The notes below the pieces were generated by a model. That model made no database searches. It was not told the origin of the DNA and saw nothing but the letters and a program-made list of their open reading frames with translations. This document shows, in pieces, positions 5,394 through 58,000 of a DNA stretch of 64,000 nt (its first letter is position 1; each line of letters opens with the position of its first letter). The stretch comes from Patescibacteria group bacterium (GTDB lineage: Bacteria; Patescibacteriota; Patescibacteriia; Veblenbacterales; UBA10138), in NCBI GenBank assembly GCA_018817715.1, contig JAHITT010000006.1, positions 218,804 through 282,803 on the forward strand, in the 5' to 3' direction. Position numbers and translations under genes: made by a program.

Positions 5394-8300
5394 CTAGCGA
5401 ATAATTGATCCAGAAAACTTCCTTTCACCATGTTCCCTAGACGATCCATTACCAAACTCCACATAATTATCGCTAAACGAAGACTTGGGAATATCAGCTA
5501 CCAAATCCTGAACTGATTCCGAAACCTTGATATCAGGCAAAACTGACTGCAAGCGTTTGTTTAACAGTGCTGCGTCTAAGCCTACACTTGACATAGCCTC
5601 CTGAGAAACCGACACAGATATTTTAGCTTCGGGTATTTCTTTTTTTATGGATTTATATTTTTTAACAATCGATATAATATTACTGATAAGAATATCCGGC
5701 GACTTAGAGCCATAAACTCTATCCATTACAAAAGACATTTCCTGGTTTCCCGCGGTGTCCTTGGTAGGTACAAAAAATACTATCTCATCAGAAATACTAC
5801 CCTTATCTTTCTCGGTCTGGTTTATAATGAAAAATTTATTAGAGTCACCAAAAGCCAAATTAGTGTCATTGTTTATCTCCTTTCTTAGGCAACCCAAACA
5901 TTGACGCATATTTTCTATTATCAAATTCAAATCCTTAGTTAAATGACTAACCACCATAGTATTAGTACTCTCCGAAAAAACAATTTTCTCAATATCAGCC
6001 AAACGTTTTTTCAACAACTCATGATTCTCTAAATGACTACTTTTCTTTATTTTGATAAAATATTCTTTTACTTTATCTAAAGTGATCTCTAAATCTTTCA
6101 TTTTTTCTTTAATAGAAGAAAGATAATTATTAACTTCTTTTTTTTCTTCCAAACTTATCTTATTTTCATCCTTAACTACTAAATTTTCTAAATAAATAAT
6201 ATCTTTACCTAAAGCCAAAGCTCCCGATGTTTGGGTAAAACTTTCACCCAACCTATTAAATATCTCTATAATCTTTTGTGATGGCGTAAGTCTTTCCCCT
6301 AATTCATTGATATTTCTTTCTACTCCTTCTTCCTGCATTTTACTAATCATATTGGAAACTAAACTAAAAGGCTGTAACTTATCTTGCGTCTGCTTTATTT
6401 TTTCTTTAGTCCAACCACCTATCCCTAATATTTCCGCCAATCTCGCCTGCAAAGCTTTTTCCTTGTCATCAAGGGTTATATCTTTACCATCCAAACTACC
6501 ATAGACTTTAGCTAAAACGGCCCCCACTTGCCTCCCTTCTATCTGCAATATCCTCATAATTTCCTTATCTAATTTATCTGGATAAATATCGGGGTCGGCC
6601 AATTCATCAATATTTCTTTTAATATTGCCTAATTTAATATCTACTGTTTCAATACTACCTACTATACTACTCATAACTTCTTCTTGTAATAATTGCTGAA
6701 ACTCTTCAGCTTTATCCAAGCTAATACCAGCTACCTCCAAAGACAAAGAAGCTATCTTAGTTTTATTTTCTAAAATAGGTTTAACTAATTTTATTTGTTT
6801 ATCCGAAAGGTATTCTTCTAATATAATAGCTTTATTCTCGCGAAAATCAGACCATTTACTGTTCAATTCCAAACCTAAAAATAAAGCTACCAAAGCTTCT
6901 TTAGTTTCATTACGGTTATTAATATTTCCTATATAACGGACACAATTATGAACAGATCTTATATGTTCTTTAGTAAAATTTTCCGGAACATTTATAATAC
7001 CAAAACGTTCCTTAAAACTATTCTTAACAACTTCCACTAATCTTACTTTTTCTGCAGACAAACAATCAGCTTTTTCTTTTGGGCTATTTTTTAAATTATT
7101 TACTAACTCACGGATAGTCAATCTAACTCCAACCAAATCCTTAGCCTGATAACTTGGCTCGCCCTCATCATCTATTTTTTGCAAAATTATTAACTGCGCT
7201 TGGTATAAAGGCAAAAGTTCTGTTAAGACAATTTTCATTTCTTTAGCTGATAATTCAGCAAATAATGATTCAAAGGTTGTATATAAACTTGGTGCCGCCT
7301 CTATTATATCATGTGATAAATTATAAAATTCAGCCTTGTCATCTTGTGGCCATCTTTCCCGATTCATTCGATTTTCCTGATTTGTTAACAATTCTTTAAT
7401 TTCCTTAATTGTTCGACTGGCTGTGGATTTACTCCTAGAAACAACATTAAATTGATAGACTAAATTTCCTAAAGACTCAACATATTTTAATGTCCCCGCC
7501 CCACCCATCTGATCTATAAAATTAGTGACTGCTAATAAATTTAAAGGCACTATTTTATTATCGCCCTTCAAAAATTCTATCCATTCTTTATGCATACTAC
7601 CAAAAGCGGCATCTTTATAATCACTGTTAAATAAATTTAAAATCCTGGTTTTATTTTCCGAGGTCAGATTTAATTTATTTTCTTGCTCAGCTACGTCTAT
7701 ATAACTATACAAACCCGCCGGCCACTCATTATCTTGAAAATCAACTTTTTGCTGTCCTTCTAAACCAGGGATTTGCAAAACCTGCTCACATTTTTCCGGC
7801 GAATAATCTATCAAAATTTCGTATAATTCCTGAATTGAATAACTGTTGCCAAAATATTTTATGTGACTTTTTAATTTATTTATTATACCGGTTCGAATTT
7901 CTAACTCCTGCACCGAACACTCTTTTAAAGAATCATATATCCAAAGCCAATTATCCATTAAAATATCCTTATCTATCAGATTAATTATGTCTTTTATAAC
8001 ATTAATTTTTTCCGGATTATTGGCTACAGTTTTTAATATCTGATTATTTCTATATCCATCCCAAATACTTTTTAAATTATTAATAAATTCCACGGGTGTT
8101 TTAACTAAAACATCTTTTTCCTCTTGATCAGTTAATTTACCGTATAAAAAATCATATAAATCTGACGGCACCAATAAACCAGAATTGTCCGCCTGTCTTA
8201 ACCCTGTAACCAATTTATTATATCCTCGGGTGTCTACCGCTTTATCTAACTGACCATTATTCAAAAATACTACTATTTTACTTTCTAAAATTTTTTGTTT

Positions 8301-12694: not shown

Positions 12695-15076
12695 TTAAAT
12701 ATCAAATTTAGCTTTAAATTTTTCCTGCAGTAATTTAACAACCTTCTTTTCCACCATGTCTGCTTCGGTCGAAGTTAAGGTTTTAGCCTGACTACGCAAA
12801 ACAAGTCGCAAAGTCAAAGCATTTTTAAGCTGATAATAACCAAGATAATCCACGCTTTCAATTAATTCATCAGCCTTAATAAGCAAATCATAAATTGTTT
12901 GCCAATTAATTTCTGTCGGATACTCTGCCACATTAAAAGTTATATCCCTATCTATAGCTGGATAGGCTGGAATTTTTTTATACAATACAGTTGCTGTCTC
13001 AGCCGGCAATAAATCTAAATCTATTTCACAAAAAGCCATTGTATAACCAGCTTTTTGAATTTTACCACCCTGAACCACTTTTTTATCTGCTAAAAGTACT
13101 TCGAATCCTTCCAATGAATCCATTTGTTTATTGGCCCATTTAACCAACTCACCTAATTCTACCAAATTAAATATTTTTTTAACTGCCCCTTTTAATTCTT
13201 CAAAAATATCTTTATAGGTCTGTTCTGTTGAGCTAATTAAACAAAGAACTAAATGATGGGATTGAATTTTTGTTATGTCATCTGTTTCTATAGTTTTATT
13301 AAAAACTCGACCCATCTCGTACATTTTTATTATTTTATTTTCACCCAATATTTTAAAATTATTAGTCACTTGGTCTAAAACCAACCCGACTAACATCTGT
13401 CTTAAATAAGGTTGTCCAGCATCTACAGGATTAACTAATTCCAACCTAGCTTCTTTAACAGCTCCTAATAAATCTTTTTCCCCCACAAACGAATAAGTCA
13501 TTGTTTCGTGCCAACCTAACGAAGCTAACAAATCTCTTATTTTCCAGCGCAGTTCTTGTTTAGGATCTTTAGGCGGTGGAGTAATGGGAAACTTAGGTAA
13601 AATTTTAGGCAATTTACCATAGCCATAAATTCTAGCCACTTCTTCCACTAAATCTTCAGGAATCGTTATATCGCGCGTGGCCCTAAAACTGGGCGGCGTA
13701 ACAATTAGTTGGTCCCCTTTATCTTCCACTTTAAATTCCAAACGGCTTAAAATTCCTATAACTTCTGGTTTGCCAATATCGGCTCCTAACCTACGCCACA
13801 GCCATGGTAAAGATAATTCAATTGGTTTTATTTTTATGGGTTTAGGATATTCATCCACCACCCGACTTACCACCTTGGCGCTCGGTATTATTTCCATAAT
13901 CAATTTAACCACTCGGCGCAAAGCTATTTCAGATAATTCTGGATCCAAAGATTTTTCAAATCTAACCGAAGCCTCGGTCCTAAGGCCTAGTTTAGCCGAA
14001 GTTTGCCGAATATTTATAGGTTCAAAATTAGCGCTTTCTAAAACTATGGAAATGGTATTATTATCTACTTCACTATTATTGCTGCCCATTACACCGGCAA
14101 TCGCTATAGCCTTTTTTTTATCAGCAATCACCAGCATATCTTCAGTTAATTTTCTCTCCACACCATCTAAAGTAATTATTGTTTCGCCTGACTTAGCCGG
14201 GCGCACTAAAATATCCGGACTGGCTAGTTTGGCTAAATCAAAAGCATGCAAAGGCTGCCCCAATTCCAATAAAACATAATTGGTAATATCCACAATATTA
14301 TTTACAGACCGCACACCTAAACAAGTTAAAATTTGTTTAAGCCATTTGGGTGACGGACCGACTTTTAAACCAGACATTACCACGCCCAAATAACGCTTAG
14401 CTTTGGCTTTATCTTTAAGACTAACCCTTAAAGCTACTTCTTTAACTGTTGACTCTATTGCTGGCGGCTCGGGTAAATTAAAAGGCACCTGCCAAATAGC
14501 GCTAAGTTCTCTAGCTAAGCCAACATGCCCCCACAAATCCGGCCGATGGGTTAAAGATTTATTTTCTATATCTAAAATAACATCATCATAAGCCAAAGCT
14601 TCTGCTAGCGGCGTACCTGGTTTAGCTTCCAAATCTGTTAAATCCATAATACCCTGCTCCACTGCCTGATCATCGGGTAAAGCTAACTCCTCGGCCGCGC
14701 AGGCCATGCCTTGGCTAGTCTGACCCCGAATAACTGCTTCTTCCAATTTTATAAAATCGCCTTGGCCATGCCACTTTACCATGGCACCAGGTTTGGCTAA
14801 GGCCACTTTCATACCTTGACGCAAATTCACCCCGCCGCAAACTATAGTTACGGATTCTTTACCAATATCCACTTGAGCCATTTTTAATTTGTCTGCCTGA
14901 GGGTGGCTATAAACTTCCGTTACCTGCCCCACCACCACGTTTTGCAATCTTTGCGACTGATTAACCACCTCTTCTACTTCCACCACGCTCATAGTTAAAG
15001 CCTCCATTAATTCCTGATCGGATAATGGTTTGGGTGGTTGAACAAATTTTTGCAATAATTGCCAGGAAATTAACAT
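12695..15076 (-). CDS. pheT: Phenylalanine--tRNA ligase beta subunit
   Basis: 793 aa. N-terminal tRNA-binding domain (VVGQVTEVYSHPQADKLKMAQVDIG), B3/4 and B5 regions, C-terminal anticodon-binding-like domain. Directly downstream of pheS. Confidence 0.9.
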   Translation of the reverse strand: MLISWQLLQKFVQPPKPLSDQELMEALTMSVVEVEEVVNQSQRLQNVVVGQVTEVYSHPQADKLKMAQVDIGKESVTIVCGGVNLRQGMKVALAKPGAMVKWHGQGDFIKLEEAVIRGQTSQGMACAAEELALPDDQAVEQGIMDLTDLEAKPGTPLAEALAYDDVILDIENKSLTHRPDLWGHVGLARELSAIWQVPFNLPEPPAIESTVKEVALRVSLKDKAKAKRYLGVVMSGLKVGPSPKWLKQILTCLGVRSVNNIVDITNYVLLELGQPLHAFDLAKLASPDILVRPAKSGETIITLDGVERKLTEDMLVIADKKKAIAIAGVMGSNNSEVDNNTISIVLESANFEPINIRQTSAKLGLRTEASVRFEKSLDPELSEIALRRVVKLIMEIIPSAKVVSRVVDEYPKPIKIKPIELSLPWLWRRLGADIGKPEVIGILSRLEFKVEDKGDQLIVTPPSFRATRDITIPEDLVEEVARIYGYGKLPKILPKFPITPPPKDPKQELRWKIRDLLASLGWHETMTYSFVGEKDLLGAVKEARLELVNPVDAGQPYLRQMLVGLVLDQVTNNFKILGENKIIKMYEMGRVFNKTIETDDITKIQSHHLVLCLISSTEQTYKDIFEELKGAVKKIFNLVELGELVKWANKQMDSLEGFEVLLADKKVVQGGKIQKAGYTMAFCEIDLDLLPAETATVLYKKIPAYPAIDRDITFNVAEYPTEINWQTIYDLLIKADELIESVDYLGYYQLKNALTLRLVLRSQAKTLTSTEADMVEKKVVKLLQEKFKAKFDI

Positions 15077-49977: not shown

Positions 49978-50363
49978 TGGTGGAGGTGACGGGGATTTGC
50001 ACCCCATGTCTAGCTACTAAGACAATATATTGGCTCCAGGTTCAGTACCGCTAAGTACCAAAAACGAATCAAGCGGTACCAAAGTTCGTTTTTGGATTGC
50101 CTTGAATTATCAAATCATTAAACGCAAGACAAACGCTTAACAATCGGCCCGATAAATGACATTCCCTTAGATTATCAGACATGTGTCCAAAGGAACGGCT
50201 AAAGCTTAATTAAGCTAAAGCTGGCGCAAAATTCAAAGAAGCAAAAGCTCCCTTAAACTTGCTGACAAATGACTTGGCATTTGTAAGAGTGCGATTTTTT
50301 ACGAGACCCGCCACTCGACCTGCTAACATATCACTTAATAACTATCGAATTGTAAACACCCCC
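49978..50363 (-). ncRNA. ssrA: tmRNA (SsrA)
   Basis: Minus strand 5' GGGGGUGUUUACAAUUCGAUAG... and 3' ...GGGGUGCAAAUCCCCGUCACCUCCACCA. A 7-bp acceptor stem pairs GGGGGUG with CACCUCC (one G-U), with T-arm and encoded CCA. Internal tag ORF GCC AAG UCA UUU GUC AGC AAG UUU AAG GGA GCU UUU GCU UCU UUG AAU UUU GCG CCA GCU UUA GCU UAA encodes (A)KSFVSKFKGAFASLNFAPALA*. CUCGUAAAAA precedes the tag region as in E. coli tmRNA. smpB is adjacent. Confidence 0.8.
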
Positions 50364-51414: not shown

Positions 51415-51555
51415 AATGGGACTTAAAGATCTTTGGGAACCAATAACTTATATTGCCGGGGCTGGAATATTAGTAATATTCTGTTTTTTTATAAAAGATA
51501 AAATCAAAAAAATAAAAAACAACAAATTGCCACGGTTCTATCGCCCAGAAAAATA
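51415..51555 (+). CDS. Possible small membrane peptide (46 aa)
   Basis: ATG at 51415 (MGLKDLWEPITYIAGAGILVIFCFFIKDKIKKIKNNKLPRFYRPEK*). One hydrophobic helix. Followed 20 nt later by a strong terminator. Below the ORF-track length cut-off, so low confidence. Confidence 0.25.
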
Positions 51556-51576
51556 ACATTGAATTGTTTAAACTAG

Positions 51577-51615
51577 ACTCCGCACTTCCTTTGGTTGTGC
51601 GGAGTATTTTTTTAT
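51577..51615 (+). terminator. Intrinsic terminator
   Basis: 9-bp stem actccgcac (51577-51585) / gtgcggagt (51597-51605), 11-nt loop, then aTTTTTTTat (51606-51615). Confidence 0.55.
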
Positions 51616-51842
51616 GGAACCACACAACTTAACAACTGTGATATCTCTCCATACCCATCCAGTCTGCCATGCGACATCCGCCGAAGCTAACTTACGTTTA
51701 TAGCTGGCAACTAATCCACACCACCTTCACCCACTTCCTTAACTAAAGAGCGTTTTTAGACGGAGGCGGATAAATATTCAACATTTTAAGATATCCTAAC
51801 CTCATAGCCACCTTATCGCCAAAGCTCTTAAAAACTTGCTTG

Positions 51843-51878
51843 CGGGGATTTATGTCCACGTGGACATAAATCCCCGCA
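51843..51878. repeat. 36-bp perfect palindrome (18-bp arms, CACGTG centre)
   Basis: gcggggatttatgtccac|gtggacataaatccccgc. T-runs occur on both strands just outside it (aaaggcttttta on plus; aagcaagttttt on minus), so it could act as a bidirectional terminator or a dimeric-protein binding site. Confidence 0.7.
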
Positions 51879-51910
51879 AAGGCTTTTTACCATATAACAA
51901 GTGTTCTTTT

Positions 51911-51990
51911 GTCATTGCGAGGGAGCACAACGACCGAAGCAATCTTAAATCAGATTGCCACGTCGGCTTTACAATCTCCTCGCAATGACA
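51911..51990. repeat. Hairpin repeat, family member A (12-bp perfect inverted arms around a 55-nt loop)
   Basis: gtcattgcgagg (51911-51922) ... cctcgcaatgac (51978-51989). The loop contains a second stem, gcaatct-taaatc-agattgc. The arm core GTCATT-GNGAG resembles the 26-mer family below. Confidence 0.6.
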
Positions 51991-52027
51991 GGCTAATTAA
52001 TTTATAAATTTTTTTGACAAAATAAAT

Positions 52028-52066
52028 AAGCCGTACAATTAATAATTATAATTAATGTACGGCTCT
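52028..52066. terminator. Bidirectional hairpin terminator after membrane-protein gene 52076-52546
   Basis: agccgtaca-attaataattataattaat-tgtacggct, with T-rich runs on both strands. Confidence 0.45.
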
Positions 52067-52075
52067 TTTAATATT

Positions 52076-52546
52076 TTAGAGAAACGTTTTCAGGCTGTTA
52101 ATAAATGCTGGAGAAAAACGTTTTTTATCCTCCTGGATTAATTTTGCTTTTTTCGCCAGCAAATCATTAAAATTAGAAATTGCTTTGCTTAAGCCTCCTA
52201 CCACAACAGCCAAACCGATAACCAAATACGCCAAACCTTTAAAAAACAAATATATAAGGGTAAAGAGATTATAAAAACCTCTGGCATAATTGGCACGGAC
52301 ATTTAGATATTTAATACAGATAATTACCGACAAAAACAGAAACAATAACAAGAACATATTCAGAAAATCTGTACCTAGTAAAACGCCTGCGTTAAATGGT
52401 TTGGTAATATTAAACCTTGGATCCTGACCAACCTCATAAAGCACCATTAATATAAGATTAATAAATGCTACAAAGGTTATAATAGCGAATAACAGGAGAA
52501 AAAAATCAATAATTGTTTTTTTAATAAACAACATTGCCTTTTTCAT
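52076..52546 (-). CDS. Hypothetical 4-TM membrane protein
   Basis: 156 aa, hydrophobic helices (FFLLLFAIITFVAFINLILMVLY, FLNMFLLLFLFLSVIICI, LFTLIYLFFKGLAYLVIGLAVVVGG). No motif recognized. Confidence 0.55.
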   Translation of the reverse strand: MKKAMLFIKKTIIDFFLLLFAIITFVAFINLILMVLYEVGQDPRFNITKPFNAGVLLGTDFLNMFLLLFLFLSVIICIKYLNVRANYARGFYNLFTLIYLFFKGLAYLVIGLAVVVGGLSKAISNFNDLLAKKAKLIQEDKKRFSPAFINSLKTFL

Positions 52547-52601
52547 TTTTTTGCCTTTTGGTTGTTAAAGTTATTTTTTTATTTTAATTTTTTAACTATC
52601 T

Positions 52602-52630
52602 ATCATACACCCAAAACCGCCTTTTGTCAA
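52602..52630 (-). promoter_or_regulatory. Sigma70-like promoter for gene 52076-52546
   Basis: Minus strand TTGACA (plus tgtcaa 52625-52630), 17-nt spacer, TATGAT (plus atcata 52602-52607), about 55 nt upstream of the ATG at 52546. Confidence 0.45.
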
Positions 52631-52765
52631 TACTTAAAGAACAAAAAGGCTAATACTAAACAAATATAGGTAAAACCAAATGTTCTACAATCTATTATAA
52701 ACTATTTTTAATAAAAACATTAATAAATACAACCAAATGTAAATAAAATGTCTTGGGTCCAGCTA

Positions 52766-52793
52766 TTGACAAAATCAACAGTTATGCTATGAT
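52766..52793 (+). promoter_or_regulatory. Strong sigma70-like promoter with extended -10 (divergent from the previous one)
   Basis: TTGACA (52766-52771), 16-nt spacer, tgcTATGAT (TG at 52785-86, -10 at 52788-52793). Drives transcription toward the hairpin repeats and the signal-peptide protein gene. Confidence 0.5.
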
Positions 52794-52839
52794 ATAACGT
52801 TACAGTTTTTTACTCTAGAACCTTAAAAAATAGTTGCTT

Positions 52840-52926
52840 GTCATTCTGAACAAAGTGAAGAATCTTATATTTGTTATTTTTGTATATTGCTTAAATTTAG
52901 AGATCCTTCGCTACGCTCAGGATGAC
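52840..52926. repeat. Hairpin repeat, family member B (26-nt inverted arms, 34-nt loop)
   Basis: gtcattctgaacaaagtgaagaatct (52840-52865) and its inverted partner agatccttcgctacgctcaggatgac (52901-52926). 20/26 complementary plus G-U pairs. Confidence 0.65.
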
Positions 52927-52950
52927 AAATACTAATAAACAATAATAAAG

Positions 52951-53055
52951 CCCGGTGTTGGCAGGTTTAACTACCCCGTCGACGGGTAGTGTTTTTATGA
53001 ACCTGCCAGGCGTCGCCGGGTATAAAATTCAAAAGCAGACTGCGCCGTCTGCAAC
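52951..53055 (+). promoter_or_regulatory. GC-rich structured leader / attenuator-like element upstream of the beta-barrel-like gene
   Basis: Nested stems ggcaggtt...aacctgcc enclosing the palindrome ctaccccgtcgacgggtag followed by tgttttta (terminator-like), then a second stem gcagac-tgcgcc-gtctgc (53036-53053), directly before RBS AAGGAG (53058-53063). Confidence 0.4.
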
Positions 53056-53069
53056 ATAAGGAGTACAAA

Positions 53070-53600
53070 TTGAAAAATCTACTAACAACCATCGTCGTCA
53101 TCTTTTTGATGACTGTATCCGTTTTTGCTCAAACAAAAACGGATAAGGCTATCCGATTTTATCCCAGCTACATATTTGTGGCTGGTGTACGCGCACATAA
53201 CGGACCCGGCTTGGTAATTTCCTTGCCAGGAGAAACCGGCAAATTCCGCGTAATGTTTTTTGCCAAATCTCTAGCTTGGGGCGTTTATGAAGAACGAGGG
53301 CTAGGTCTTGAATATTCTAAGTTATTAAACCAACCCACTGACAACCCTCGGTACCGTATTACTGGTGGTACAATCTACAGCGTCGAAAATCTATATGGTG
53401 ACGCTAGGTTGCCGGAAAAAATGTTAACCCTATATTGCGGCGGAAGCATGGTGTACGATATAACTTCATTCTTAACAACTGAGGTCGTACTGGCACCAGC
53501 ATTTACCACTCTGGTGAGTTTACCATCGGATTATTGGTTCCGTACGGATGGCTCACAATTTGGTTTATCCGGACGTATCGCTTTCAGGTTTAAAATGTAA
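53070..53600 (+). CDS. Secreted beta-barrel-like protein (OmpX/OmpW-like small outer-membrane-protein architecture), TTG start
   Basis: TTG at 53070, 6 nt after AAGGAG. Signal peptide MKNLLTTIVVIFLMTVSVFAQ-TK. Alternating hydrophobic/aromatic beta-strand pattern throughout, C-terminal ...GRIAFRFKM. GC markedly higher than the genome background. Confidence 0.55.
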   Translation: MKNLLTTIVVIFLMTVSVFAQTKTDKAIRFYPSYIFVAGVRAHNGPGLVISLPGETGKFRVMFFAKSLAWGVYEERGLGLEYSKLLNQPTDNPRYRITGGTIYSVENLYGDARLPEKMLTLYCGGSMVYDITSFLTTEVVLAPAFTTLVSLPSDYWFRTDGSQFGLSGRIAFRFKM

Positions 53601-53657
53601 AAAGGAAAAACAGTAAAAATAATTAAATAATTAAAAACCAATTAAAAAGGTGACAAA

Positions 53658-54437
53658 ATGACTAACCTTGAAATAATATTAATCGTAATTGCAAGTTCTT
53701 TGGTAATGTCTGGTTTAATCGGCCTAGCAATTTATCTTACACGCCGACAAAACCAAGACGATCTTAATAACACCAATCCTTGCCACGGACCATTACCAGT
53801 ACCCAACTCAAATATACACATACCGGAACAAAATATTCCATTAACAGCCTGGCTAAATATGTGCAACAGAAGACGTATGCCAGTTTGGGGATGGTTCATG
53901 ATTGGATTATTATTTGTTCTAACCGTTGTATTTTTATCATTATTTACTTTGGGCAACCAAACATCAGCCACTAACACTGAAAAACCTGAAGCTGTCACTA
54001 CTATCAATACTCCAGTTCCGGCACCATTACCTGTTCCACAATTTCCAAATGATTATGCAAAAAAAGCCGACGTTGATTCTGCAACAGCAAAAATAACCGG
54101 TGCGATATCGCAACATGATAAAAACTTAACTGACCACCGTCAATCTTCCGGCCGCGGATACGCCGCTGCCAAAAAACAACGCGAAGAAATTCTCACTGTT
54201 GTTAATGCAAATGGCGGTAAATTAGACAACATCTCAAAACAAGTCGCTGACCTTGACGCCAGTATCACCTTACTTAGGGGCGAACTCATCATAATGGTAG
54301 ATGAATTAAAAACCGCACTAGCCGATTCATCTACTACCCAAAAAATCAATTCCTTAACGGACGAAATTAACCAGCTCCGTTTACGAATTGAAACTTTGGA
54401 AAAACAAAAAAATAATCTAGTCGGCGACCCCGATTAA
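53658..54437 (+). CDS. Hypothetical membrane protein with Pro-rich linker and C-terminal coiled-coil
   Basis: 259 aa, two TM helices (IILIVIASSLVMSGLIGLAIYL; VWGWFMIGLLFVLTVVFLSLFTL), a PxP-rich segment (TPVPAPLPVPQFP), then heptad-like ...LDASITLLRGELIIMVDELKTALADS...INQLRLRIETLEKQKNNL. Confidence 0.5.
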   Translation: MTNLEIILIVIASSLVMSGLIGLAIYLTRRQNQDDLNNTNPCHGPLPVPNSNIHIPEQNIPLTAWLNMCNRRRMPVWGWFMIGLLFVLTVVFLSLFTLGNQTSATNTEKPEAVTTINTPVPAPLPVPQFPNDYAKKADVDSATAKITGAISQHDKNLTDHRQSSGRGYAAAKKQREEILTVVNANGGKLDNISKQVADLDASITLLRGELIIMVDELKTALADSSTTQKINSLTDEINQLRLRIETLEKQKNNLVGDPD

Positions 54438-54459
54438 TCTACAAAAATATAATATTGAC

Positions 54460-54493
54460 AGAGACTGCTCACAAGGCAGTCTCTATTTATTTA
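54460..54493 (+). terminator. Intrinsic terminator of the 53070-54437 transcription unit
   Basis: 9-bp stem agagactgc / gcagtctct with loop tcacaag, then atttattta. Confidence 0.5.
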
Positions 54494-54511
54494 CTTAAAT
54501 AACTGTATTAG

Positions 54512-54582
54512 AGATTCTTCGCTACGCTCAGAATGACGTTAGACAGTCATCCTGAACGAAGCGCTAGTGAAGTGAAGGATCT
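54512..54582. repeat. Hairpin repeat, family member C (26-mer plus inverted partner, 8-nt loop)
   Basis: agattcttcgctacgctcagaatgac (54512-54537), identical to the copy at 54908-54933 and 24/26 to the copy at 52901-52926. Partner gtcatcctgaacgaagcgctagtgaagtgaaggatct (54546-54582). Confidence 0.7.
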
Positions 54583-54584
54583 CG

Positions 54585-54866
54585 CTATTCAATTAAATCT
54601 CTAAATTCCGGATTAATCGTTTTAATTAAATCTATTTTTCTTTGCCTAGTCCAACCTTTTATTTTCTTTTCTACAGTAATAGCCTGCTGTGGCGAACTAA
54701 ACTCTTCAAAAAAGACTAATTTATTTACTTTATATTTATTGGTAAATCCAGGCACTAACTTATTCTTATGTTCATGCATCCGCCTATCTAAATTATTAGT
54801 CACTCCGGTATACAAAACCGTATTGCTTTTATTAGTAACAATATACACATAACAACGTTTAATCAT
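54585..54866 (-). CDS. GIY-YIG nuclease-superfamily small protein (YhbQ/UPF0213-like)
   Basis: 93 aa. CYVYIVTN...VLYTGVTNNLDRRMHEHKN contains the GIY, YIG, conserved Arg and Glu positions of the GIY-YIG fold. Flanked on both sides by identical 26-bp direct repeats. Confidence 0.8.
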   Translation of the reverse strand: MIKRCYVYIVTNKSNTVLYTGVTNNLDRRMHEHKNKLVPGFTNKYKVNKLVFFEEFSSPQQAITVEKKIKGWTRQRKIDLIKTINPEFRDLIE

Positions 54867-54907
54867 ACCCTCCTATGATTAATTATTAGACTGTTTTTTT
54901 AAAATTA

Positions 54908-55044
54908 AGATTCTTCGCTACGCTCAGAATGACAATGAAAATAAACGCAACGAAGAATAATAATAAAAATATAATACAGCTTAAAATGACAACAAAAAAA
55001 CCTGGCTCAGAATGACGACACAAATAAACGTGACTAAGAATGAC
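54908..55044. repeat. Hairpin repeat, family member D plus degenerate partial copies
   Basis: agattcttcgctacgctcagaatgac (54908-54933), degenerate partner ...cgcaacgaagaata (54945-54958), then partial cores aaaatgac (54984-90), gctcagaatgacg (55005-17), actaagaatgac (55033-44). Confidence 0.6.
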
Positions 55045-55069
55045 ATCAAGACAAACTAAGGAGGTAAAA

Positions 55070-58000
55070 TTACTTTTCCTTTAATAATTTTTCGGCTTTT
55101 TCTATAGCATCTTGGGCTTTAAGCCTAGCTTCCAATTCCTCAGCCTGGCGAATAGCCTCCTGAGCGGCGATTTTAGATTTTTCTAAATCCGAATTAAGCT
55201 TAACAGATTCAACATTATTAATTTTATCATCTACAACAGCTGGCTTATCCACAATCTCAACCTGACTAACTGTTTGCTGAGGAGTTATTGACTGTTCCAC
55301 TGCCTGAACATTATCACCTTTAAAATGCCAACTAGCTAAAACGCCCTTTTTATCTACAAAATACTGATGCAAGTTCTCCCCAACCGTGCCACTATTAGCT
55401 CCTTGTAATTTAGGCTCCATATCATGAAACCAATTTTCTATGGTGGAATTATTATTAAACATTAAAAAACCTTTACCAAAATGATTTTCCAAACTAGAAA
55501 GTTTAAAATCTTTTACATCCATAGACATTATTTGTCTGGCTTCCTCGTTACTAAAATCCGCGCCTAATTTACTTAAAACAACCTGCTCATTCAAAGCTAT
55601 GCGATTGGCTATTTGTTTATTATCTAAATAAAAACTTTCATTAAAATGAGATTTATCTGCTATAGGCAATTCCACCGCCTTATTTAACAAAGGTGTTTTA
55701 ACATCAGCAATAAATTTATCTCCCTCAACAGTCCAGCCCAAATTTTTATCTGAACTATAAAACATTTTATCCACAAACCTGTAATCCACCGACTTAAAAC
55801 CATTACCTTTTATAGTTTGGCCTATTTCCCATAACTTATTAGCTTTGGTTGGTGATAAATCCGCTAAATTTGTTTTAGTTGACAAATAACTACCAAAATC
55901 CGTATCCCGCAAATACTGCGGCGCTTTACTACCCACGTGTTCGGCCAATTCAGTTATACGGCCGCTCTTAGCGCTTTGTAGGGTGGTTATTATATCGGCC
56001 TTATCTAATCCAGTATGACCAGCTGACCACTCAGCCACCAACAACTTATCGGCCGCTCCCCAATTTTGACCAGCTTCGCCTATAGCCTTGTCTACCTTAT
56101 CGATTGTTTGGTTAAAAATTTCATAAGATGATTGAACTTGGTTAGCATAATCATCACCATAATCAGCCGCATCTACTGAATAAAGTATTTCGTGACTTTG
56201 ACTGTCCACCAATAAACTACCTTTAGTGCCATCTTGACCCAAAAACTCATAAGCTGTTAAACCGCTATTACCGCCAGCTGGCATAGCCGTTTCCACTAAA
56301 CTTCCTTGTTTATATTCGCTGTTCCACCAATCTAGGTTTTCAGTTTTTATAGGCTCAACCTCAATAGTTTTAGGAATCGGCGCCTGCTGATACACATCTT
56401 GACTATCTAAACCCTGGCCAAATTCGTAATGGGCCTTGCCATCAGCCCCTATAACAAAACGAATTTGCTCGCCTTGAGCTGAACTTTTTAATCTTAATTC
56501 CCCTTGTTCAGTAACATAACCTTCATCTATAGCTGTTTGATGCGCTAACCTATTGGCAAATTCTCTAACAGCTTTGCTATTAGTTAAATCACCGTCAAAA
56601 CCGAATTTTTTAGGATTATCTAAAATCTGCTCAATAGCTTTGTGTTCTATACCCTCGCCCGAACCAACAGTTGCTATGTCTATATCTTTCTGCCAACGGA
56701 CAGTTATTTCTTCAGCTGTTGGCACCTTATTACCAGCAAACATTTCCGGATGGTTGGCTTTAAAATTCTGTAATAATTCCGGTGTCATTGATTGGCCATT
56801 AATTTTGGTATTTGATATTGCTTCATCCAAGGCGCGCAAATAATCAGCCTGGGTTTTTATAGTAGTCGCATCCGCTGTTTGTAAATCAGGAATCTTAAAA
56901 CCATATTTATGAGACAAAGCATCTATAACCGCACCGTCCTGCAAAGTACTTTCTGAAAATTGAGGCGAACTAGATTGATTTATTATTTCCGAAACATCTT
57001 GCGTTTTTGAACCACTGCTAAATAAATGCCCAGCGCCTTCTTTAACTAAACCACCCAAATAGGCAAACCCAGCACCTAAGGCAGCACCTTTGGTTATCTG
57101 CCATAATAATTTAGAGGCTTTGCGACTACCTACTATATCTTCATGTGTTTTAATAAAACTTTTTAGTCTTTGCTCAATAGTTAAACCATCCACATCCACC
57201 AATAATTTACTATCGCCAGCTACAACCGTCGTTTCCGCCAAACTTAAATATTTTAATAGTTCATATTTATTAAACAAATTTTTATCATTGGCGCCAAAAT
57301 CTATCAAACCCTTATCCAGTTTATCTTTGGTATAAAAAATTCTAGTTTTTAACAAACCTCTTAATTCCTGTTTCTTTTCCTCGTCAGCCGACTCGTAATC
57401 ATTTAATAATTTTTCTATTTTCCCCTTAGCCTGTTCAGCTGTGACAAAAGCCTTATCAGCTTTTTTTAAACCAGCTTCATATAATTGAGCATTTAAACGG
57501 CTACTTTCTTCTATGGCTTGCAAAATATTTCCATGTAATTCTCTTACTTCCTGGGGTATTTCGTGAGTGGGATCGTCTATATCGACCACATTACTAACCA
57601 ATTGTTTAACTTCCAGTAATTCTCGAGCCCTTACTAATCTTTCTTTATTAGCTTTAATTTTTTCCTTTAAATTTTTTTCGTCTTTAGAGGTAAAATCCAC
57701 ACCGCGTCGACGAGCTGATTCTGTTTCCGCCATATCCTGCTTAAACCTGCGCCAAGCCAAAGTAGCGCCTGAAGCAGCCGCTACCACTGGCGCTGCCCAA
57801 ACGCCTAAAGCACCCGCTACTAAGGCCCGACTACCCAAACCACCTAAAAAGTAAGTACCTCTTTCTGTGGCCACATTACCTAAAGCTTTAACCCAAAATT
57901 TATTCGAATCAACCTGCTTTAAAGCTTTCTCTATATTAGGGTTAGCTTTAAATAATCTTTCCATTTGTACCTGATAATCAATATCCTTGGTTGCCAAAGC

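Follow-up and report, generated by a model that had tools for sequence, protein, structure and literature searches.

A hairpin-repeat cluster around a GIY-YIG nuclease gene in a Patescibacteria genome is probably an Ssn/SRM system with a variant repeat

The Ssn/SRM system joins a small nuclease of the GIY-YIG fold, SsnA, to hairpin repeats in the DNA, the Ssn-related motifs (SRMs). It is the closest described counterpart of the locus discussed here, a cluster of hairpin repeats around a GIY-YIG gene at positions 51,616 to 55,069 of a 64,000-nucleotide stretch of DNA (the window, from here on) from a Patescibacteria group bacterium (GenBank assembly GCA_018817715.1, contig JAHITT010000006.1, positions 218,804 to 282,803, forward strand). 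SsnA of Neisseria meningitidis (Nm SsnA), a single-domain protein of 94 amino acids (CDD cd10448), binds the hairpin repeat NTS (CGTCATTCCCGCGMAVGCGGGAATCYRG) as single-stranded DNA (ssDNA) only and cuts it a few nucleotides upstream, being inactive on double-stranded DNA (dsDNA), RNA and the reverse strand (Chenal et al., Nat Commun 2025, PMC11893778). In particular, cutting depends most on the 3 nt 5' of the palindrome, and binding on the C right after it. The same authors, whose characterised enzymes come from Neisseria and Wolbachia, report an SRM near 71% of the homolog genes, on both sides in 42%, and liken the NTS-ssnA-NTS layout to insertion sequence (IS) elements and to repetitive extragenic palindromes (REPs) with their RAYT transposases. 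In Neisseria, NTS clusters surround membrane-protein genes and the system lowers transformation by NTS-containing DNA; namely, cutting of the imported ssDNA shortens the homology and lowers recombinational replacement (PMC11893778).

It is our belief, with a probability of roughly 0.78, that the Patescibacteria locus is an Ssn/SRM system, its open reading frame (ORF) of 93 codons encoding, to judge by sequence comparison, an SsnA-family single-domain GIY-YIG endonuclease, and the repeats being the cognate SRMs. In this sense, the kind of system is known, the host group is new, and the repeat is a variant missed by the published pattern; the Patescibacteria do not appear in the main text of PMC11893778. 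An earlier sequence-only reading of the same DNA had not named Ssn/SRM, already described in the literature, and a repeat cluster of odd appearance is hereby assigned to a system described in 2025.

The protein provides a direct link between the two. The ORF matches the Pfam GIY-YIG family (PF01541, E=3.7e-19, residues 5-77) and no other domain, just as the sequence-only reading had proposed, and it resembles SsnA in size (93 residues here, about 94 in Neisseria), in its single-domain build and in its conserved catalytic Y, Y and E. Namely, Y8, Y19 and E66, as well as R29 and H33, are invariant in an alignment of 33 homologs and present in the window protein, and the former three align with the essential residues Y6, Y17 and E64 of the Nm enzyme. 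A tblastn search of PLSDB (7.3 Gb) returned two N. gonorrhoeae chromosomes (E=4e-16), and the pairwise comparison with the N. gonorrhoeae SsnA homolog gives 41% identity over 87 residues, gapless (E=1e-25). If this homolog is taken to stand in for N. meningitidis SsnA, the similarity lies within the Neisseria-homology threshold of the paper (E < 1e-10). What is more, the gonococcal gene is embedded among 11 canonical NTS copies in 3.2 kb. The two records in question, NZ_CP119142.1 and NZ_CP119140.1, are 2.17 Mb long and filed as PLSDB plasmids, but evidently chromosomes; where the gonococcal gene should start, an in-frame ATG is lacking, the ATG at 1500-1502 being out of frame, and its largest listed ORF is 71 codons long. 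At E<=1e-5, 964 homologs of the window protein are found, of which the closest named ones are annotated mainly as Patescibacteria. NCBIfam holds no specific model for it, PADLOC gives no defence-family match, and no second SsnA-family ORF was found in the whole window. The best solved-structure matches belong to the UPF0213 (YhbQ-YazA) family (PDB 1ZG2 and 1YWL), alike in size and fold but distant (E=1.7e-4 and 2.6e-3); to our knowledge, that family has not been reported as repeat-associated.

The second line of evidence comes from the repeats. We define a generic arm as GTC, A[TC]NNN, 3-60 nt, the reverse complement of the five-letter stem, and C. Twelve such arms are found in the 64 kb, against 1.3 +/- 1.0 expected (maximum 4), and seven of them lie within 51911-54933, so that 7 full arms and 3 half-arms crowd into 3.1 kb. 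Five matches fall outside the cluster, and the two of these that were inspected are both without the GAG/GA signature described below; the total is still above chance. The elements of the cluster, which also flanks a two-gene operon, are the following.

51911..51944, plus strand: left arm of unit A, SRM-like, ATTGC/GCAAT class, GTCATTGCGAGG...GAAGCAATC (generic arm search)
51953..51989, minus strand: right arm of unit A, the inverted partner, ATTGC class (generic arm search)
52840..52864, plus strand: left arm of unit B, SRM-like, stem ATTCT/AGAAT, in the 5' leader of the operon (generic arm search)
52902..52926, minus strand: right arm of unit B, stem ATCCT/AGGAT, the 24/26 copy of the 26-mer (generic arm search)
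54513..54537, minus strand: solo arm, SRM-like, 3' of the operon terminator (generic arm search; position kept in the related locus L204, sequence different)
54546..54581, plus strand: unit C, downstream (inverted) arm of ssnA, with a longer loop, 3 nt from the ssnA stop codon
54585..54866, minus strand: ssnA homolog, predicted single-domain GIY-YIG nuclease of 93 amino acids (Pfam and homology to the Neisseria homolog)
54909..54933, minus strand: unit C, upstream arm of ssnA, in ssnA orientation, 42 nt 5' of the ATG
54980..55044, minus strand: tandem array of three degenerate 5' half-arms, GTCATTYTRAG plus 15-17 nt (families D2, D7 and D12), preceding the full arm as read on the minus strand

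The 26-mer AGATTCTTCGCTACGCTCAGAATGAC had been noted in the sequence-only reading as identical at two places and nearly so at a third, and it is indeed present without mismatch at 54512-54537 and at 54908-54933, a third copy at 52901-52926 having 2 mismatches, where 100 shuffles give an expectation of 0. Its 11-mer tail CTCAGAATGAC, with at most one mismatch allowed, occurs six times in the window, in each case inside 52840-55044 (0.28 expected). That reading had also counted at least four copies of a hairpin-forming element, with every unit able to fold into a hairpin of 60-90 nt. The repeats are real, and as ssDNA the two-arm stretches fold better than shuffled sequence (51908-51992, z=-7.1 and -22.8 kcal/mol; 52837-52929, z=-2.9; 54510-54584, z=-2.7). 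That said, 54512-54582 is not one unit but the junction of two elements, the solo minus-strand arm and a plus-strand arm that pairs across the GIY-YIG gene with the minus-strand arm at 54909-54933, while 51911-51989 belongs to another arm class (ATTGC/GCAAT).

A third line of evidence is the association of gene and repeat across homologs, which we assessed from the gene side in 80 metagenomic loci encoding homologs (53-65% identity), with the gene set on the plus strand. By inspection, GTCAT...ATC directly precedes the start codon and GAT...ATGAC directly follows the stop codon in most of these loci. In numbers, an arm in the same orientation lies within 150 nt upstream in 54 of 75 loci (72%), an inverted arm follows just downstream in 53 of 74 (72%), and both sides are occupied in 40 of 69 (58%). 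The median gaps are 25 nt upstream and 22 nt downstream, counted from the end of the protein match, and arm density, which is 4.2 per kb up to 250 nt from the gene, falls to 0.1-0.6 per kb beyond 500 nt. About a dozen of the 33 aligned homologs carry N- or C-terminal extensions (DPSLRSG*, DSSLRSE, EILRYAQDD, DPSQAQDDS, DCFASLAMT) which are nothing but translated repeat arms. In other words, the gene stands between two inverted arms, as it does in most homologs, and the arm class travels with the gene. The sequence-only reading had listed a GIY-YIG-associated or REP-like element among its options and had suggested looking for the same repeats beside GIY-YIG homologs elsewhere; this is the option that held, the hairpin family being specifically tied to the GIY-YIG gene. 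One homolog (60% identity) resides in a defence island on a Planktothrix agardhii plasmid (L203; NZ_LR882964.1, 17347-20613), where its neighbours are a type IIL MmeI restriction-modification gene on one side and DISARM drmA on the other; arm pairs and head arrays flank it in both directions.

What, then, is the unit that such a nuclease would recognise? Positions 6 (Y) and 22 (R) of the arm were free to vary in the scan pattern, and among the 141 distinct matches examined these positions read T-A in 80 cases, C-G in 60, C-A in one and T-G in none (Fisher P about 1e-39). In the gene-flanking regions, a GTCAY head is followed within 3-60 nt by the complement of its own 5-nt stem and a C in 132 of 193 cases, as compared with 4.0 +/- 1.9 for foreign stems. 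Because the stems of paired arms differ, as they do in 22 of 45 loci with both arms, and yet each stays self-complementary, pairing takes place within an arm and not between arms. Unit B of the window is a case in point, its left stem being ATTCT/AGAAT and its right stem ATCCT/AGGAT, each internally paired. Several further positions are conserved without being imposed by the search: T before GTC (78%), GAG after the 5' stem (95, 96 and 79%), A before the 3' stem (85%) and TC after the C (84 and 68%). The arm, T-GTC-ATYCT-GAG...GA-AGRAT-C-TC, 25-45 nt long, is thus an independent hairpin, and the covariation points to this single arm as the likely functional unit, rather than to the two-arm hairpin of 60-90 nt seen in the sequence-only reading.

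Like NTS, which reads CGTC, ATTCCCGCG..CGCGGGAAT, C, the repeat around the window gene consists of GTC, a palindrome (ATYC...) and C. Unlike NTS with its 9-bp CCCGCG stem, it belongs to a variant class, TGTCATYCTGAG…GAAGRATCTC, in which a stem of 5 bp is followed by a GAG...GA internal loop and a variable apex, often GCGWAGC; a suitable search pattern would be TGTCAYNNNGAR-N(3-50)-RANNNRTCTC. Two main classes can be told apart, and in the 45 two-arm loci the same one is found on both sides of the gene, AYYCT/AYYCT in 23 and ATTGC/ATTGC in 15, with no locus mixing the two. One column of the protein separates them: W in KIKGW accompanies AYYCT (96%) and G in KIKAG accompanies ATTGC (87%). The window protein, with W72, stands between arms of the AYYCT class. 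Unit A (51911-51989), on the other hand, is of the ATTGC/GCAAT class that elsewhere accompanies G72-type proteins, and since the only SsnA gene of the window is W72-type, unit A would be an orphan or a relic. The match between protein column and arm class is correlative and may partly reflect shared descent. For the engineering of ssDNA-cutting tools, the class-specific match of ATTGC arms to G72-type proteins and of AYYCT arms to W72-type proteins supplies ready-made candidate specificities.

The half-arms at 54980-55044, after which comes the stop codon of a gene of 1352 codons, have counterparts elsewhere. Tandem arrays of the 5' head only (GTCATYCTGAG plus 6-17 nt, period 19-28 nt), directly upstream of a full arm, were seen in the window and in the fetched loci L028, L057, L071 and L203 (1198-1268 and 1839-1909). 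A head copy lies upstream of 33 of the 719 full arms in the fetched loci, the downstream control giving 2. In its main text, the Ssn paper (PMC11893778) nowhere uses the word 'tandem'. These arrays could be footprints of slippage or repair near the predicted cut site.

Two related loci, L204 and L206, bear on the history of the cluster, and for this comparison the features between unit B and the solo arm are needed.

52766..52793, plus strand: sigma-70-like promoter of the two-gene operon (TTGACA, 16 nt, TG-TATGAT; 11 of 12 consensus matches, extended TG), conserved in L204 and L206
53070..53600, plus strand: protein of 176 amino acids with an N-terminal signal-peptide-like segment; a bracketed gene, outside the repeat system itself
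53658..54437, plus strand: membrane/coiled-coil protein of 259 amino acids, the second operon gene, with weak, sub-threshold matches to coiled-coil and SMC-like families
54460-54484: terminator-like site after the gene for the 259-residue protein

Both relatives have the promoter of the window, a unit B left arm of identical sequence, a right arm at the matching position, and then the same two genes (80-83% protein identity). The spacer of unit B, however, measures about 16 nt in L206 (105-172), about 37 nt in the window and more than 100 nt in L204 (87-233), differing in sequence as well as length, while the arms are conserved; what lies between the two arms of a pair therefore changes much faster than the sequence on either side. 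Further downstream, L204, several of whose arms are degenerate, has a counterpart of the solo arm at 1928-1962, and by arm order and orientation its arms run minus, plus, minus, with about 10 nt between the last two and the large gene directly after them, whereas the window has ssnA between the corresponding plus and minus arms. No SsnA-like ORF was found at the L204 locus (best tblastn E=3.4). An empty site in a relative, one of the checks the sequence-only reading had proposed, is thus on record, and ssnA is polymorphic in presence between relatives, which is compatible with insertion of the ORF into a repeat pair and with its deletion alike. The seat of the ssnA ORF inside a repeat pair and its lack in the matching pair of L204 would suit an ancestry like that of IS or RAYT elements, the ORF having been gained or lost. 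This polymorphism in close relatives bears on whether the units are, or once were, mobile.

If the locus works as its characterised relatives in Neisseria and Wolbachia do, the arms would fold whenever their DNA becomes single-stranded, be it as imported transforming DNA, as replication or repair intermediates, or as conjugative or phage ssDNA. SsnA would then bind the palindrome plus the following C and cut the strand of the arm a few nucleotides 5' of GTC, presumably leaving dsDNA, RNA and the reverse strand alone. In the window, as around SsnA in Neisseria, the repeats also flank neighbouring envelope-protein genes: arms of both orientations enclose an operon for a putative secreted and a putative membrane protein, which corresponds to the repeat-gene-repeat layout of Neisseria. 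By analogy, SsnA might limit the recombination of imported ssDNA around this operon; we regard such a role as plausible, because Patescibacteria can be naturally competent, as Saccharibacteria are (PMC10187176 / PMC10633639), and as more weakly inferred than the identity of the system.

Several points weigh against our interpretation. The published degenerate SRM search sequence, HGTCWYN(0-2)YYVSBRHN(0-5)WNVSBRGN(0-2)RNCYNB, has no match in the window, whichever strand is searched, nor in any of the 80 homolog loci. This sequence was derived from 29 genomes and is a search tool, not a definition of the family, and the absence of matches places the window repeat in a variant class outside the tested sequence space. 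Single arms fold weakly, at -0.8 to -3.4 kcal/mol by nearest-neighbour DNA parameters, no better than shuffles; since these energies are not significant, the argument for a hairpin rests on covariation. Neisseria has hundreds of NTS copies, as compared with one small cluster in our 64 kb. Furthermore, a transformation-limiting role is extrapolated from one species, and MAFFT, being ambiguous on repeated arms, could not settle which arm of L204 is the ortholog of which arm of the window, which is why arm order and orientation were used; that L204 lacks the gene is nevertheless unambiguous.

The repeat itself is far more widespread than the gene. A scan of genomes with GTCATYCTGARCGWAGCGAAGRATC, one genome per species, yielded at least 120 loci, and the hosts among the matches listed include Acidobacteriota, Chloroflexota, Nitrospirota, Bacteroidota, Bacillota, Planctomycetota, Verrucomicrobiota, Gemmatimonadota, Fibrobacter, Omnitrophica, Synergistota and several Proteobacteria, as well as Gracilibacteria, Saccharimonadales and other Patescibacteria; the 25-mer core of the arm class is spread over more than 15 phyla. 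As a rule, an arm is followed by a variable spacer of 10-80 nt and an inverted arm, sometimes with upstream tandem copies of the first 11-12 nt only. The motif was also found in 77 stretches of viral contig DNA, in one of which the nuclease gene overlaps it. A GIY-YIG homolog (phmmer) accompanies 2 of the 120 motif loci listed, both within 113 nt of the motif, and the SsnA-family ORFs among 197 motif-selected loci all lie 0-113 nt from it. These 2 of 120 loci had at first suggested a weak link between gene and repeat, an idea that the gene-side test overturned. Because the published pattern misses a large cross-phylum class of arms, Ssn/SRM pairs are probably far commoner than reported, the candidate phyla radiation (CPR) included. 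In a metagenome-assembled genome of Fibrobacter sp. (L039, about 7195-7219), the 25-mer stands in frame at the start of an ORF resembling a lipoprotein signal peptide (MKNSFPSVILSVAKNLAMLSIAAVMFVACGG...), and so arms can be embedded in coding sequence. In six further loci from Acidobacteriota and others (L012, L034, L043, L081, L097 and L116), two-arm units are nested in a larger palindrome, e.g. GGCTGCTGAAAAA...TTTTTCAGCAGCC, forming composite mosaics akin to the bacterial and neisserial mosaic elements BIME and NIME.

Would the same observations be explained as well by a unit that serves only itself? One can argue that SRM-ssnA-SRM is an active, autonomous selfish element, in which the GIY-YIG protein mobilises its own ORF, either through cut-and-paste of ssDNA or through homing into unoccupied repeat pairs, and in which the short two-arm units are non-autonomous derivatives, like miniature inverted-repeat transposable elements (MITEs) or REPINs. 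Such an explanation shares its biochemistry with the Ssn/SRM reading and differs on the purpose of the system. The position of the ORF between inverted arms in most homologs speaks for it, as do the many two-arm units across phyla, the arms without ssnA in L204, the variable unit B spacer between conserved arms, the motif in viral contigs, the GC content of ssnA (0.29 against a window mean of 0.36) and the IS analogy raised by the authors of the Ssn paper (PMC11893778). The locus also resembles REP/RAYT (REPIN) and IS200/IS605 systems in having one nuclease gene between inverted hairpins, many scattered two-arm copies without a gene, an unpaired 5' tag beside the stem and, as presumed for the window protein, hairpin recognition on ssDNA; as regards a MITE or IS, inverted arms and a presence/absence polymorphism were observed. 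That said, no transposase fold is found at the locus, the fold being GIY-YIG and not that of a Y1 HUH transposase, and the tag reads GTC instead of GTAG or CGTC. A GIY-YIG domain of 93 residues is not known to join DNA as a transposase does, nor is any strand-transfer activity known. Multiple identical ssnA copies were not seen, deletion between arms explains the polymorphism equally well, and the two arms of one gene often differ (22 of 45), unlike fresh terminal inverted repeats. The gene is present in 1-2% of the motif loci (among the matches listed), as expected of a domesticated, REP/RAYT-like relation. Homing endonucleases of the GIY-YIG type (I-TevI, I-BmoI, Seg proteins) share the catalytic domain, the selfish-element-like placement and the presence/absence polymorphism; unlike I-TevI, the window protein is 93 residues in all, without a C-terminal DNA-binding domain and without an intron or phage context, and its characterised SsnA relatives cut ssDNA only. 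The group I intron endonuclease model TIGR01453 reaches 20.5 bits against a cut-off of 56.05, over residues 7-37 only. An active element of this kind is therefore unlikely in our view. Equally doubtful, when taken as a whole, is a more elaborate version of the Ssn/SRM reading, in which GAG...GA arms, with a 25-mer core nearly identical across those phyla and missed by the published SRM pattern, would form a separate and very widespread Ssn specificity group reaching into CPR and viral contigs, ssnA would be a still-mobile passenger entering and leaving pre-existing repeat pairs, the W72/G position would help to set specificity, and the half-arm arrays would be footprints of cleavage and repair.

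Two other explanations give the nuclease a smaller part. The hairpins might act in RNA, as terminators, attenuators or mRNA-stabilising stem-loops of the ordinary REP type, with the link to the nuclease incidental. Effects on mRNA stability are common among REP-like elements; the promoter at 52766-52793 is upstream of 52840-52926, which places unit B in the operon's 5' leader, and the two-arm units fold significantly as single strands. Yet the free stem positions are strictly Watson-Crick (T-G in 0 of 141), which is not typical of RNA helices, the unpaired GTC and C around the stem are conserved, as SsnA requires on ssDNA, and the arms are strongly associated with SsnA genes, in a specific orientation. 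Furthermore, Nm SsnA does not bind RNA (PMC11893778). A search of the window at Rfam gathering thresholds returned only tmRNA (49978-50363) and tRNA-Asp, and an E-value search of 51500-55200 only chance-level miRNA and snoRNA matches, none at or near threshold, so that no known RNA family is involved; altogether, we find this explanation improbable. Still harder to uphold is the modular-cassette proposal of the sequence-only reading, by which the 26-mers would be recombination sites, comparable to integron attC, that delimit exchangeable cassettes; one cassette would then hold the two envelope genes and the other the GIY-YIG gene. Three direct copies do bracket both segments, the operon runs on the strand opposite to nearly all other genes of the window, and its segment stands at the 91.5th percentile of GC content. 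Against this, the variable gene content between sites that marks an integron was not seen: L204 and L206 have the same two genes, promoter and repeat unit at the same place, which argues against exchangeable cassettes. What the repeats accompany, across dozens of unrelated contexts, is the SsnA gene and not variable cargo, and no recombinase was seen beside the locus. The neighbourhood is one of housekeeping genes (smpB/tmRNA, IF3, ArgRS, IleRS, RecO, Lgt and a DsbA-like gene, all core). Finally, the operon was said to have its own promoter and terminator within the bracket; the terminator-like site is inside, but the best promoter is outside. We thus consider cassette boundaries very improbable.

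The 1.6-kb bracketed segment had also been described as clearly higher in GC, which does not stand. Namely, 52927-54511 has a GC content of 0.399 against a window mean of 0.362 (maximum for windows of the same length, 0.422), and the contrast is due mainly to its AT-rich neighbours (0.30 and 0.29). The idea of a foreign high-GC cassette was rejected for this reason, 0.399 being not exceptional at the percentile given above. The protein of 176 residues has no match in Pfam, NCBIfam or PADLOC, and only 2 relatives among 5.8 billion proteins (83% and 80% identity). Between unit B and the ribosome-binding site, the leader (52950-53030) contains a stem, cccggtgttggcagg...cctgccaggcgtcgccggg, that encloses a terminator-like hairpin (52970-52990, then GTTTTTAT) and may be an attenuator; at the same place, L204 and L206 have a different stem. 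At the other end of the cluster, no ORF of 40 codons or more was found in 51616-51830, and just 5' of unit A lies a perfect palindrome of 20+20 nt (51840-51879, TTGCGGGGATTTATGTCCAC/GTGGACATAAATCCCCGCAA) with T-runs on both strands, resembling a bidirectional terminator. Over the window as a whole, GC skew is negative throughout and nearly every ORF of at least 150 codons is on the minus strand. The operon for the proteins of 176 and 259 residues is among the few plus-strand units, another being 749-1429, while 13677-14279 lies within a larger minus-strand ORF.

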